Positions 38,120 through 42,373 are shown, numbered from the stretch's first letter. The stretch is 47,808 nt of DNA from Candidatus Fiminaster equi (GCA_018064745.1 JAGHUR010000004.1:1-47808); one strand, 5' to 3'. The notes: generated by a model not told the origin, from the sequence alone. Translations and numbers: made by a program.

Positions 38120-41100
38120 TTACTCCTTATGATCGAGCTCTAAATCAACTGTATTAACAGCTTCAAGCTCGCTTTCATCCATATCTAAGATATCAAAGGC
38201 AGCATTTGCTGACTCTAATTCATCTTCATTTATATCGAATTCTGAAACATCACTTGCTTCATTTAATTTTTCAAGTGCTGCTTCATCTAATTCATCATGT
38301 TCAGTTTCGACTGTATTAACATCTTCTAAGGCTGATTCATCGATTTCTTCATGTACTTCTTCAACTGGTTCTTCGATGACTGGTTCCTCGACTTGAGGTT
38401 CTGGTTCAACCATAGGTTGTTCTTCTACAGATTCTTCCTCTACTACAGGCTCAACAATTGGTTCTTCCTCTACAACAGGTTCTTCAACCAAAGGTTTTGG
38501 TTCTTCCTCAGTTGGCAAGAATGATGTGTCAGAAGACTTGTTTTCTTTAATTAGAGGTGGGTTTACGGAAAGCATTTCTGCAAATGACATATTCGGAAGC
38601 TTGTAATTTTGTTCTTCATATTTGTCATTTGGAACAATTCCGTTCATTTCCATGACTTCAGCGATTAATTCTGCAACATACTTACAAGCACGCTCAGATT
38701 TAACCTTCATCATCATTGGGAATTCAACTTCTTTACCCTCAACTCTCATATCTTTAAAGAAGAGTCTATTTGCATCATGTGTATCTGGGTTTAGAGGTAA
38801 ATAGACACAAAGTGTCTTGCCTTTAACTTTAAAGAGGGCGATTTTAATACGTCCAAGTTTAAAGAGTTCGTGACTCCAAGAAATCTTGGAGTTAACTTTC
38901 TTGTATGAAAGGATGTTGTTCTTACATACGTTATATAAATCTTGTCTTTCGTCTCCTGAAAGAATAAGTCTTGCAGAATAGGAAAGTTTATATTTAAATG
39001 CGATTTCATCCTCGCTTGGTGCGCTTAAAACGACTGGCTCAGGTTCAACAACTGGTTCTTCTTGAACTGGTTCTTCAACTACTGGAGCAGGCTTACCCTC
39101 CATTAGGGATGAATTATCTTCGACAAGTTTAGCTAAGACTGGATCAGAAACGAGCATTTCTACAATACTCATATATGGAAGTCTATAGTTAACTTCTTCG
39201 TAGTTATCAAGTTTAATGATGTTGTTATTTGCCATTACATCAGCGATAAGCTCAGCAACATATTTCACTGCTCTATCTGATTTGACTTTCATCATCATTG
39301 GGAATTCAACTTCTTTTCCCTCGACTCTCATATCTTTGAAATGGAGTCTATCTTGGTCATATTTATCTGGATCAAGTGGGAGATAGACACAAAGTGTCTT
39401 TCCTTTAACCTTAAGGGTAGCAATTTTAATTCTACCAAGCTTAAAGAGTTCATGATTCCAGGAAATCTTTGAATTAACTTTCTTATAAGAAAGAATGTTA
39501 TTTTTAACTGCATTGTAGAAGTCTTGTCTTTCTTCACCTGAGCGAATCATACGTGCGCTATAGGAATAGACGTAGCGGTATCTAATGCCGTCTTTAACGA
39601 CAACATCTTCTTCCACTGGCTCTTCTACTTTAACTGGCTCTGGTGCTGGTTTAATTTCAACTGGGGAGGCATTATCCTCGACAAGTTTAGCTAAGACTGG
39701 ATCAGAAACGAGCATTTCTTCAATACTCATATATGCTAAGCGGTAATCTTGTTCAAAGTAATCTTCTAATCTAACGATGCCGTTTGCGGCCATGACATCT
39801 GCGATTAATTCTGCAACGTATTTACAAGCACGGTCAGATTTAACCTTCATCATCATTGGGAATTCGACTTCTTTACCTTCGACTCTCATGTCTTTGAAGT
39901 GAAGTCTATCCGCGTCATAGTTATCTGGATTTAATGGGAGATAGACACAAAGTGTCTTTCCTTTAACTTTAAGCTCTGCAAGTTTAATTCTGCCGAGTTT
40001 AAAGAGTTCATGACCCCATGAAATTCTGGATGTAACTTTCTTATAGGAAAGGATATCGTTTTTAACTTTGTTATAGAAGTCTTGTCTTTCTTCACCACTA
40101 CGAATAAGTCTAGCGGAGTAAGAATAAATATAACGGTATCTGATGCCGTCTTTAACAACAACATCCTCTTCAACTGGAGCTGGTTGTTCTTCAACAACTG
40201 GTTTAACTGGTGCTTTTTCACCAATTCTACGTGCAAGATCTTCTGCAAGCATTTCTTCAAGGCTCTTGTATGCGTACTTGTAGTCTTGAGCCTCGTAGTT
40301 TTCAACTTGGACAAGTCCAAGATTTGCCATTACTACATCAATAAGTTCTTTTGCGTACTTAACAGCACGTTTTGATTTAACTCTAAGCATTAAACCAAAG
40401 TCGTTTTCTTTGCCTTTTACGCGTACATCCTCGTGATGGTAGTGTTCAGCATCAAATTTATCTGGGTTAAGTGGCAAGTAAACACAAAGTGTTTTACCTT
40501 TAACCTTAAGTTGACATACTTTTTCTCTACCAGCTCTAAAGAGCTCTCTTGGCCAAGAAATTGAGGATTTAACTTTCTTAAAAGAAAGTAAGTGATTCTT
40601 AATCTCATTATAGAATTCTTGTCTTTCTTCACCGCTTCTAATAAGTTTAGCGATAAAGCTATAAATGTATGTGTATTTAAAGCCTGCGTCTTCAAAGTTC
40701 CAGTCAAATGACCATGGACCAATTTTATCGAGTGGTCTTGCAAGGTCTCTATCAAGTAATTCTTGAAGTGACATTTCTGGTAAGTGGAAGTCACGGACTT
40801 TGTATTTAGGATCTTTCTCAACTCCATAAGATGCCATGATTTCTGCAATTAATTGCTTTGCATATTTACAGGCACGTGGGCTTCTTACTTTTAGTAAGAA
40901 TGGATATTCAACTTCTTTACCTTCTTTAGAAACATCTAAATGATGGTAATGATCTTTATCATATTTTGATGGGTCAAGTGGTAAGTAGACAAATACTGTC
41001 TTACCCTTAACGTTAAGTTTTGCAACTGGTTTTCTTCCAAGTTTATAAAGATCTCTAGACCAGCTGAGTAATGACTTCACTCCTTTATAGCCGAGTAAAT

Positions 41101-42373
41101 CATTTCTAAGTTCGTTATAATAATCTTGAGTTGGAAGTTGAGCTTTGATTAAACGAGCAATGATTGAGAATTTGTAACGGTAATTGATATCTCCTTTTTC
41201 ATCAATAACCGAGACTTCTTCATCAATTTCATCTTCCCACATCATAGCATCTGCTGCTAATGCAACTAAAATAGCGAGTTCAATTTCCTCACTAGGTGCG
41301 TCAAGCGGACCTTCATTCTTAAGAATGCCTGGAATTAATGTCTTATAATCGAATTCGTTTTCGTTAATATCATCAAAAGCATCTTTAATGGATGGATTAA
41401 CTTTTAAAAGTCTTGAATCAAGAGCTTTTTCATCATCAAATCCATTCTTAATGTGTGCTTGGAATAATACATATTGCTCAGCAATAGAGTTATACATATC
41501 CTCAAGAAGCTTATCAGTTGCGGTAATAAGGTCTTCTTGAACAAGGGCTTCATAACCAGTGGTTTGATAGCCTTCAATAAATTCCCAAAGCGAAAGACAA
41601 TCTTTAAATAATGGGTTCTTTAAGATTGTGTTTGTTCTAAGTACTGGTGGACGGATAAAGTTTTTACCCATGTTCATGATAAATGGAGTAGACATGTATT
41701 CATTAATGACTTCCATAATCTTTTCCATTCTCTTCCAAAGATCGGATGTGTAAACATAGTTTTTAATAACTTCGTGTTCATCAGGAGGTTGGCCAACTTC
41801 AATTTCAAGTTTAATCTTACCTGTGTAATCTTTATGCTCGAATTTTTGAGTAATGGCTAGCTTTGTATTCTTTTCATCTTCACCACAGTCTTTAGCACCG
41901 TTATATCTAATTGCAACGAATGCATATAAACGGTTAACTAAGGTGTTAATGAATTTGTTTTCATAGGTTAAAACTGTATCTTCTTGGAAAACGTTAAGTA
42001 ATTTAGAAGGTACAACTGAACCATCTGGTTTAATATCAGTAATATTCTCAGTATGCTGAGAAAGATGCATTACACTTCGACCATTAATGTGTTTTGAAAT
42101 CTCAACTGGAAGAACTTCTTCTTTTTCTTGAAGTCTGAATTGAGGATTTCTAATGATTTGGTCAAGGGAAGGTAAAGCATCTTCGATGGCGGTAATCCAT
42201 GTTTCGTCGAGTTTTTTGAGCATGAAGCGTTTACGAAGTTCAACTTCGTTTTCGCCGACAGCAAAAGAATCCATCAACTCTTTATAGGTTGGGAATTCTT
42301 TTATTAAATCTCTATCGCTTTCAGATGTCTTTTTATAGATATCTTGCTCAAAAGCTTTATTCTCGTCTGACAT
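38120..42373 (-). CDS. 1417-aa cytoplasmic protein: McrC/DUF2357-like N-terminal region, five ~145-aa basic repeats, acidic C-terminal tail
   Basis: No signal peptide. The N-terminal blocks are IIRNPQFRLQEKEEVLP, TYENKFINTLVNRLYAF and LKNPLFKDCLSLWEFI. Repeats start near residue 395, with consensus Y.Y.YS..ARLIRSGEERQDFYN.VKN.ILSYKKV.S.ISW.HELFKLGR.K.A.LKVKGKTLCVYLPL.PD.YD...... P/E/V-rich linkers separate them, and the last ~135 aa are rich in D/E. Confidence 0.85.
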   Translation of the reverse strand: MSDENKAFEQDIYKKTSESDRDLIKEFPTYKELMDSFAVGENEVELRKRFMLKKLDETWITAIEDALPSLDQIIRNPQFRLQEKEEVLPVEISKHINGRSVMHLSQHTENITDIKPDGSVVPSKLLNVFQEDTVLTYENKFINTLVNRLYAFVAIRYNGAKDCGEDEKNTKLAITQKFEHKDYTGKIKLEIEVGQPPDEHEVIKNYVYTSDLWKRMEKIMEVINEYMSTPFIMNMGKNFIRPPVLRTNTILKNPLFKDCLSLWEFIEGYQTTGYEALVQEDLITATDKLLEDMYNSIAEQYVLFQAHIKNGFDDEKALDSRLLKVNPSIKDAFDDINENEFDYKTLIPGILKNEGPLDAPSEEIELAILVALAADAMMWEDEIDEEVSVIDEKGDINYRYKFSIIARLIKAQLPTQDYYNELRNDLLGYKGVKSLLSWSRDLYKLGRKPVAKLNVKGKTVFVYLPLDPSKYDKDHYHHLDVSKEGKEVEYPFLLKVRSPRACKYAKQLIAEIMASYGVEKDPKYKVRDFHLPEMSLQELLDRDLARPLDKIGPWSFDWNFEDAGFKYTYIYSFIAKLIRSGEERQEFYNEIKNHLLSFKKVKSSISWPRELFRAGREKVCQLKVKGKTLCVYLPLNPDKFDAEHYHHEDVRVKGKENDFGLMLRVKSKRAVKYAKELIDVVMANLGLVQVENYEAQDYKYAYKSLEEMLAEDLARRIGEKAPVKPVVEEQPAPVEEDVVVKDGIRYRYIYSYSARLIRSGEERQDFYNKVKNDILSYKKVTSRISWGHELFKLGRIKLAELKVKGKTLCVYLPLNPDNYDADRLHFKDMRVEGKEVEFPMMMKVKSDRACKYVAELIADVMAANGIVRLEDYFEQDYRLAYMSIEEMLVSDPVLAKLVEDNASPVEIKPAPEPVKVEEPVEEDVVVKDGIRYRYVYSYSARMIRSGEERQDFYNAVKNNILSYKKVNSKISWNHELFKLGRIKIATLKVKGKTLCVYLPLDPDKYDQDRLHFKDMRVEGKEVEFPMMMKVKSDRAVKYVAELIADVMANNNIIKLDNYEEVNYRLPYMSIVEMLVSDPVLAKLVEDNSSLMEGKPAPVVEEPVQEEPVVEPEPVVLSAPSEDEIAFKYKLSYSARLILSGDERQDLYNVCKNNILSYKKVNSKISWSHELFKLGRIKIALFKVKGKTLCVYLPLNPDTHDANRLFFKDMRVEGKEVEFPMMMKVKSERACKYVAELIAEVMEMNGIVPNDKYEEQNYKLPNMSFAEMLSVNPPLIKENKSSDTSFLPTEEEPKPLVEEPVVEEEPIVEPVVEEESVEEQPMVEPEPQVEEPVIEEPVEEVHEEIDESALEDVNTVETEHDELDEAALEKLNEASDVSEFDINEDELESANAAFDILDMDESELEAVNTVDLELDHKE
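38575..41191 (-). repeat. Five in-frame ~560-580 bp coding repeats
   Basis: DNA blocks such as catcatcattgggaattc(a/g)acttctttaccctc recur near 38708, 39290 and 39850. Repeats 3-5 are most similar to each other. Confidence 0.85.

Follow-up and report, generated by a model that had tools for sequence, protein, structure and literature searches.

What does a McrC-family protein do when its nuclease is gone and an array of basic domains stands in the nuclease's place? The question is raised by a gene of Candidatus Fiminaster equi that encodes a protein of 1417 amino acids and lies on a stretch of 47,808 nucleotides (GCA_018064745.1 JAGHUR010000004.1:1-47808), referred to here as the window. An earlier note, made from the sequence of this DNA, had described the protein as McrC/DUF2357-like and had proposed that it binds nucleic acid or another polymer. 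The answer that we favour, with moderate confidence, is that the protein is the McrC subunit of a CoCoPALM-type machine, a membrane-anchored NTPase derived from McrBC that is encoded in an operon for SipW/TasA-like fibres under the control of cyclic di-GMP (c-di-GMP), and that it is not a restriction enzyme. Within this machine it would most likely serve, on the cytoplasmic side, as the adaptor of an McrB-like motor bound to the membrane and carry a multivalent array for the binding of a polyanion.

A McrC-family protein without its nuclease

The gene is a genuine open reading frame (ORF) with an ATG start, and its strand is minus (Table 1). A homologue search with the full-length protein returned 98 relatives, 88 of which carried the precomputed PF09823 assignment; this full-length query was required, as a search with a single repeat returned no relatives. 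Residues 1-392, hereafter the N-module, recurred as a single block in 96 of the 98 homologues. The family membership that the earlier note had proposed for this part was borne out: Pfam DUF2357, expected in a check of residues 1-390, matched residues 63-172 with 31.1 bits (curated cut-off 23.3; E value 1.9e-7), and it was also found in all 28 diverse N-modules of the family that we scanned (best E value 6.4e-11). The three sequence blocks on which the note had relied (IRNPxxRL, T-x-EN-K-F-(I/L)..L and the LWEF helix) are all present, as IIRNPQFRL at residues 73-81, LTYENKFINTL at residues 135-145 and LFKDCLSLWEFIEGY at residues 255-269, and in an alignment of 28 family sequences they sit on invariant or nearly invariant columns.

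The PD-(D/E)xK nuclease has been lost from this protein, as the note had suspected. A profile scan of the 1417 amino acids matched no nuclease family, and PDDEXK_7 had no match in any of the 28 family N-modules, one of which weakly matched another PD-(D/E)xK family (AHJR-like, E value 0.002). The 28 invariant columns of the family alignment all lie before residue 264, hence neither an acidic residue nor a lysine is invariant anywhere after W263. The AlphaFold model of the N-module (pLDDT, the predicted local distance difference test, 75; predicted template modelling score, pTM, 0.49) is elongated, with a helical body and a long beta hairpin at residues 167-195. Past the LWEF helix it has just a strand, a helix, a disordered part (residues 310-360) and a last helix, and the alpha-beta-beta-beta-alpha-beta core of the nuclease is not seen after residue 270. 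We read the region after the LWEF helix as a remnant of the nuclease's first helix and strand, from which the catalytic core is gone. The helical body with its hairpin is compatible with the bundle of helices and the stalk that have been described for DUF2357 (Bell et al., 2024; eLife, PMC11090510).

The remainder of the protein consists of five repeats and a tail of 134 residues with a net charge of -50 and an isoelectric point (pI) of 4.05, which corresponds to the D/E-rich end of about 135 residues in the earlier description. Such tails are common in the family: where they measure at least 50 residues, 57 of 76 have a net charge of -10 or below, and acidic linkers recur family-wide too. The placement of the protein in the cytoplasm also held up. 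It has neither a signal peptide nor a membrane segment, since no 19-residue window of the whole protein exceeded a mean Kyte-Doolittle hydropathy of 1.19. Searches of the PDB with the whole sequence gave chance-level matches only, and a search of PHROGs gave only spurious ones.

Five basic repeats with a predicted double-wing-like fold

The earlier note had counted five repeats of about 145 residues. There are indeed five in tandem, and the unit is longer, about 160 residues. Pairwise identity is 43-85% between the proteins and 55-79% between the DNA copies, therefore we take the repeats to be old duplications. We also considered that they might be an artefact of assembly; this was ruled out by the inter-copy DNA identity of just 55-79% and by Tandem Repeats Finder, which detected no long tandem repeat in the DNA. 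Relatives of the McrC type carry between one and nine repeats, located on either side of the DUF2357 module. Copy number shifts fast among close relatives, with 3, 4, 5 and 9 copies distributed over the window protein and three others (P0001, P0003 and P0006) at 72-85% identity. L007, the closest genome, encodes from 10001 onwards an ortholog of 1736 amino acids whose N-module is 98% identical.

The cores of the repeats, of 125 residues each, are basic, with net charges of +5 to +11, and the P/E/V-rich linkers between them, which the note had pointed out, are acidic (net charges of -3, -6 and -10). Basic cores were also obtained for 207 repeats of the family (mean core net charge +10.6, with a pI above 8.5 in 98.6%) and for 335 repeats taken from unrelated architectures (mean +9.8). 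Judged by these sequences, basic charge is a property of the whole repeat family and not a local accident.

An AlphaFold model of repeat 3, built with an alignment of 63 diverse copies, was confident (pLDDT 95, pTM 0.88). The PDB structures that Foldseek placed nearest to it were E. coli YjbR (2fki; E value 0.055, template modelling score TMt 0.55), DR2400 of the DUF419 family (2a1v; 0.22, TMt 0.49), YdhG of the DUF1801 family (2oc6 and 9t2w; 0.32-0.40, TMt 0.46-0.56) and the C-terminal domain of T4 MotA on DNA (5jlt; 0.64, TMt 0.48). In BFVD a DUF5655 protein was found (E value 0.004, TMq 0.53, root-mean-square deviation 2.7 over 108 columns). Every one of these matches is weak, and the top ones all belong to one class, the "double-wing" DNA-binding proteins. 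Profile searches gave similar hints below threshold, with DUF5655 matching four of the 63 repeats (best E value 0.0064) and DUF1801 matching one (0.017). None of the 63 reached the cut-offs of DUF5655, DUF1801 or YjbR, no Pfam or NCBIfam family was reached, and a PDB search with the repeat profile returned chance-level matches only. Because all matches stay below family thresholds, we regard the repeat as a remote relative of the double-wing class that belongs to no named family. The note had been unable to assign the domain, and this stands as far as Pfam and NCBIfam are concerned; the repeat does, however, match two candidate-defence models of PADLOC (PDC-S18, E value 3e-23), and DUF5655, DUF1801 and YjbR are remote kin.

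With YjbR/MmcQ (PF04237), DUF1801/YdhG, DUF5655 and the MotA C-terminal domain the repeat has its alpha/beta topology in common, and with YjbR and MotA also a basic surface. It differs from these families in its length of about 160 residues, with an extra C-terminal helix and strand, and in its occurrence as tandem arrays tethered to membranes, and the residues by which they bind DNA could not be mapped onto it. We infer from the fold class and the family-wide basic charge that the repeat is a polyanion binder, probably of nucleic acid. The array proposed in the earlier note is thereby strengthened but not proven. Published work on YjbR and MotA also bears on a possible binding of DNA.

A membrane-anchored McrB-like partner in a conserved operon

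The earlier note missed the genomic context of the gene, in which a membrane-anchored McrB homologue, SipW-type signal peptidases, secreted proteins with TasA-type signal peptides and EAL-domain proteins are encoded. This context argues against a role in restriction. The McrB-like gene lies 35 base pairs (bp) upstream, and its product of 513 amino acids matches Pfam AAA_5 and the PADLOC model PDC-M26A (E value 1.3e-34), with E. coli McrB as its sole PDB sequence match. Walker A (GISGTGKTS), Walker B (LDEMN) and the signature NNDD are invariant across 76 McrB-like sequences; NNDD is compatible with "NxD followed by D", yet it aligns without a gap to NTAD of E. coli McrB. The first 85 residues or so form membrane helices (hydrophobic segments at approximately 48-82) and are followed by a heptad-like stretch. 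A weak match to DivIC/FtsB (E value 0.037), as would suit an FtsB-like anchor, was seen in one of six McrB-like N-termini.

Two SipW-type peptidase genes flank the McrB-McrC pair, and both paralogues end in charged cytoplasmic tails. From the first of them (SipWa) to the gene for a membrane protein of 764 amino acids, a run of five genes, the intergenic gaps measure 12-35 bp. The 764-residue protein has the motifs of an intact EAL domain (EAL, EFTE, DDFG, KLD and EGVE) and no GGDEF motif. The EAL, DDFG and KxD motifs are missing from a second EAL protein, of 260 amino acids, which is thus a likely c-di-GMP receptor. The 255-residue secreted protein has weak matches in its signal region to TIGR04088 (E value 0.0082) and to the N-terminus of Peptidase_M73 (0.043), and a PDB search with the profile of its family gave chance-level matches only. 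Two more proteins, of 299 and 1062 amino acids, have signal peptides of the same type (SSFAWFSAN and ATVAWFGG). Their genes adjoin the operon in the closest relatives and occur not far from it in a few remote ones (L027, L028 and L030), and they possibly encode further fibre or tip components.

Conservation of the operon was scored in 44 species loci with enough flank, using a simple phmmer comparison for the presence of its eight genes. The order SipWa, McrB, McrC, SipWb, EAL was kept in all 44, and all eight genes were detectable in 35. The genes for the degenerate EAL protein, the 253-residue membrane protein and the 255-residue secreted protein usually come ahead of this run. When one genome per species was scanned, relatives appeared in 356 species genomes, all of them Bacillota and mostly metagenome-assembled genomes (MAGs) from gut or rumen; the closest is that of a "Bacilli bacterium" MAG from horse faeces. 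In two relatives (P0095 and P0096) the McrC N-module is followed by a highly charged E/R/K coiled coil of about 380 residues and by a complete SipW peptidase with its membrane helices, and repeats are absent. These natural fusions imply that the functions of McrC and SipW are tied together, and they place the module on the cytoplasmic side of the membrane.

The repeat outside McrC-type proteins

The distribution of the repeat across genomes, which the note had recommended for a check, turned out to be wide. A search with the repeat profile against 1.84 billion cluster representatives (clusters at 50% identity) returned 3,624 proteins at an E value of 1e-3 or below, and 1,896 at 1e-30 or below. 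The McrC-type module was present in just 23 of 138 newly returned repeat proteins, and the other 115, mostly tethered to a membrane, had for the greater part one of two architectures. In the first, a short N-terminal membrane anchor is followed by positive residues and then by two or three repeats. The second is that of giant proteins of 1.5-4.7 thousand amino acids, in which a signal peptide and surface repeats (Flg_new, Ig, beta-helix) precede at least one membrane segment, with again two or three repeats after it. A uL15-like domain ends 44 of the 115 (P0110, P0122, P0119 and 41 others); it matches PF00828 above cut-off and corresponds to the C-terminal part of uL15, a ribosomal protein. 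The combination of anchor or giant surface protein with repeats and a uL15-like domain appears undescribed, and the window holds no copy of it. The one standalone anchor-repeat-uL15-like gene that we looked at has sugar-metabolism genes as neighbours, a context that is uninformative. Going by these architectures, the repeat domain is typically cytoplasmic and membrane-tethered, and sometimes paired with a module of RNA-binding type. That it might instead be an extracellular cell-wall-binding repeat was considered and rejected, given the missing signal peptide, an NTPase partner that must be cytoplasmic and the positive residues that follow the anchors of the tethered relatives.

Comparison with known systems

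CoCoPALM is the name that Bell et al. (2024) gave to a large McrB GTPase clade in which the enzyme is fused to a membrane and coiled-coil domain like that of FtsB. It is associated with signal peptidases and usually has coiled coils on both subunits, and its GTPases have an NxD signature and not NxxD, two readings that the NNDD of the window protein fits equally; the description takes up one paragraph, with the analysis deferred, and the relatives of the clade are presented as predicted defence systems. Details on CoCoPALM are absent from two supplementary files of that paper, and our literature search found no later paper on it, nor anything relevant on SipW with McrB or on PDC-S18 or PDC-M26. 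The locus studied here shares with CoCoPALM an McrB-like NTPase whose N-terminal part comprises a membrane helix and coiled coil, an adjacent McrC homologue with DUF2357, neighbours of the signal-peptidase family and hosts among the Bacillota. Whereas a coiled coil would be expected on McrC, the homologues here bear one to nine basic double-wing-like domains and acidic tails; the charged coiled coil is present on McrC in P0095 and P0096. The EAL (c-di-GMP) genes and the TasA-type secreted proteins are not mentioned in the main text of Bell et al. or the two supplements. Since it agrees in its anchor, its peptidases and its DUF2357 partner, the locus fits, as a predicted variant, into this named but unexplored class.

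E. coli McrBC has the same core of an AAA+ McrB-type NTPase (Walker A, Walker B and an N..D signature) with an McrC/DUF2357-family partner encoded directly downstream. Its McrB reads DNA with an N-terminal domain that is here replaced by the membrane anchor, the PD-(D/E)xK nuclease of its McrC is absent here, and a candidate nucleic-acid-binding fold is found here on McrC instead, in multiple copies and in the setting of an operon of secretion, fibre and c-di-GMP genes. CoCoNuT systems (Bell et al., 2024) are likewise derived from McrBC, and their McrC homologues often have an inactivated nuclease or none, together with extra binding domains. However, they are soluble and always tied to HEPN or other nucleases, whereas no nuclease is encoded near the membrane-anchored NTPase studied here. 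The tapA-sipW-tasA operon of B. subtilis and the sipW-bsaA operon of C. perfringens resemble the locus in their SipW-type peptidase beside secreted proteins with an A-x-F-(S/N) signal and in a biofilm-type regulatory context, but they have one SipW, no McrBC-like motor and no built-in EAL proteins, and the mature secreted proteins of the window are not detectably TasA-like.

A proposed mechanism and its alternatives

In the mechanism that we propose, the N-terminal helices and coiled coil of the McrB-like protein would keep it on the inner side of the membrane, and, as its intact motifs suggest, it would form an AAA+ ring. By analogy with E. coli McrBC, the DUF2357 module of 392 residues would dock into this ring through its beta-hairpin stalk and stimulate the hydrolysis of nucleoside triphosphates (NTPs). 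The five basic double-wing-like domains in the nuclease's place would bind a polyanion of the cytoplasm in a multivalent way, DNA or RNA being the most likely ligand, and the acidic linkers between them and the acidic tail after them may compete with it from within the protein and so hold the array shut before engagement. The machine would sit beside the two SipW peptidases, a location supported by the natural fusions of the McrC module to SipW, and NTP-driven work on the bound polymer might be coupled to the processing or assembly of secreted fibre subunits. The degenerate EAL protein would be the receptor of c-di-GMP and the membrane EAL protein its phosphodiesterase. The computational results on which the proposal is built are family membership, the missing nuclease, the repeats' fold class and their charge, the intact NTPase motifs, membrane anchoring, synteny and the fusions.

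Several results weigh against this proposal. Foldseek with the moderate N-module model found no McrC structure; a PDB search with the N-module profile found no McrC and only chance-level matches; and hhalign of this profile against E. coli McrC detected no similarity, which at so great a distance is no real test. It is therefore the Pfam model and the adjacency of the genes that connect the N-module with McrC. The fold matches of the repeat are all weak (Foldseek E values 0.004-0.6, TM 0.4-0.55). Members of the DUF1801/YdhG family include frataxin-like iron proteins, thus the fold does not dictate nucleic-acid binding, and the binding partner of the array is putative. The likeness of the secreted proteins to TasA ends with the signal peptide and is not detectable in their mature parts, and nothing explains why a fibre system should need a polyanion-binding array.

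The alternative that we take most seriously, though we consider it rather unlikely, is that the repeats bind another anionic partner, such as lipids of the membrane or the tails, acidic or coiled-coil, of partner proteins, and that the protein is a scaffold or spacer that organises a membrane complex. The domain is nearly always tethered to a membrane, by an N-terminal anchor or, in giant surface proteins, by its place behind their last membrane segment; the alternation of basic domains and acidic linkers is that of a polyampholyte; both SipW paralogues have charged cytoplasmic tails; a charged coiled coil takes the place of the repeats in P0095 and P0096; and repeat numbers that vary from 1 to 9 among relatives are spacer-like. 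On the other hand, the nearest folds are those of DNA-binding double-wing proteins, the domain co-occurs with a uL15 domain of rRNA-binding type, and its strong sequence conservation (pLDDT 95 from 63 sequences) suggests a specific ligand. Unlikely, too, and a shade more so, is a system of McrBC ancestry that defends against phages or plasmids, in which the array would recognise invading nucleic acid and the effector would be the anchored NTPase together with the peptidases or membrane proteins, for example in an abortive infection through damage to the membrane. The ancestry of both proteins would suit such a role, both match candidate-defence models of PADLOC (PDC-S18, E value 3e-23; PDC-M26A, 1e-34), relatives of the clade were predicted as defence systems by Bell et al., and PIN, Fic, TnpB and AAA_14/DUF4143 genes also lie in the window. 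Yet neither a nuclease nor another recognisable effector is present, and a rigid synteny of eight genes, with TasA-signal proteins, SipW and c-di-GMP genes, over hundreds of species typifies a structural or developmental operon. Moreover, the PDC models are untested candidates on which we found no paper, and the repeat domain is found chiefly in proteins tethered to a membrane and in the tails of giant surface proteins, with one examined gene placed among those of sugar metabolism.

That the protein is an ordinary McrC with a cryptic or very divergent PD-(D/E)xK nuclease, in residues 226-392 or in the repeats, is already largely refuted, and we give it hardly any credence. The LWEF helix, which precedes the nuclease core in McrC-type proteins, is kept, and there is the AHJR-like match in one of the 28 N-modules; against these stand the lack of invariant acidic and lysine columns after W263, a model with one strand, helices and disorder where the core should be, the absence of PDDEXK_7 from all 28 members and a repeat fold that is double-wing-like and not that of a nuclease. 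A bolder extension of the membrane-anchored fibre machine that we favour is improbable, although far less so than a hidden nuclease. In it the McrBC motor would have turned from DNA-cutting defence into a membrane-anchored, non-destructive handler of nucleic acid that links the chromosome or RNA to a c-di-GMP-regulated site of fibre secretion, for example by feeding or anchoring DNA in a TasA-like biofilm matrix. The repeat would then be a large unrecognised family of membrane-tethered nucleic-acid binders, which also occurs, with a uL15-like module, on the cytoplasmic tails of giant surface proteins of Firmicutes.

Features of the locus and other genes of the window

The features discussed above are collected in Table 1.

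Table 1. Coordinates in the window of the McrC-family gene, its parts and the genes of the operon (aa, amino acids).
Feature	Position	Strand	Basis
Whole gene, McrC-family protein without nuclease	38120..42373	-	ORF listing, translation, homologue search
N-terminal module, residues 1-392 (DUF2357/McrC N-domain with vestigial helix and strand)	41198..42373	-	Recurs as one unit
Pfam DUF2357 match, residues 63-172	41858..42187	-	E value 1.9e-7, 31.1 bits
Repeat 1, residues 393-555	40709..41197	-	Self-alignment; core net charge +11
Repeat 2, residues 562-724	40202..40690	-	Self-alignment, charge; best PADLOC PDC-S18 stretch 576-692
Repeat 3, residues 741-903, modelled copy	39665..40153	-	AlphaFold pLDDT 95, pTM 0.88; Foldseek matches
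Repeat 4, residues 927-1089	39107..39595	-	85% identity to repeat 3; best PDC-S18 stretch 935-1046
Repeat 5, residues 1121-1283	38525..39013	-	Self-alignment, charge
Acidic tail, residues 1284-1417	38123..38524	-	Net charge -50, pI 4.05
McrB-like NTPase, 513 aa, N-terminal membrane helices and coiled coil	42409..43950	-	AAA_5, PDC-M26A, PDB match to McrB
SipW-type signal peptidase a, 272 aa	43982..44800	-	NCBIfam TIGR02228 and SipW models; 44 of 44 loci
SipW-type signal peptidase b, 210 aa	37475..38107	-	TIGR02228, E value 2.7e-19; 44 of 44 loci
Secreted protein, 255 aa, TasA/SipW-type signal peptide GTSTYAWFSAN	45129..45896	-	Sequence; 36 of 44 loci
Protein with a single N-terminal membrane helix, 253 aa	45973..46734	-	Hydropathy; 35 of 44 loci
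Degenerate EAL-domain protein, 260 aa	46731..47513	-	Pfam EAL, E value 2.8e-16; 35 of 44 loci
Membrane protein, 764 aa, degenerate GGDEF and intact EAL	35159..37453	-	Pfam EAL, E value 7.3e-56; 44 of 44 loci
Two proteins (299 aa and 1062 aa) with TasA-type AWF(S/G) signal peptides	30815..34899	-	Sequence

Just downstream of the fibre genes, at 30081..30781, a PIN-domain protein of 141 amino acids is encoded whose start abuts an ORF of 91 amino acids, an arrangement like that of a toxin-antitoxin pair. The genes at 1528..2637 and 26980..29647 form a mixed and partly mobile-looking neighbourhood and encode a Fic/DOC protein, an acetyltransferase (GNAT), a PRiA4_ORF3-like protein and an ATPase (AAA_14/DUF4143). 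An OrfB/TnpB gene of the IS605 family lies at 25136..26311, with helix-turn-helix, OrfB_IS605 and Cas12f1-like TNB domains. Four large putative surface proteins are encoded at 2965..7608, 9723..14711, 18577..21273 and 22225..24972: one of 1547 amino acids with nine Flg_new repeats and Big_3, one of 1662 amino acids with Big_2 repeats, and two with BspA-type LRR_5.

Implications

The PADLOC models PDC-S18 and PDC-M26A match an operon whose conserved context does not resemble defence, and such matches may be over-interpreted. The repeat, with about 3,600 clusters at 50% identity and a confident predicted fold, is nameless in Pfam and NCBIfam, and it looks like a predicted membrane-tethered polyanion binder of gut and rumen Firmicutes. 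The locus, with its partner genes all in one operon, would clearly exemplify how a machine of restriction is reused for the biology of the cell surface.

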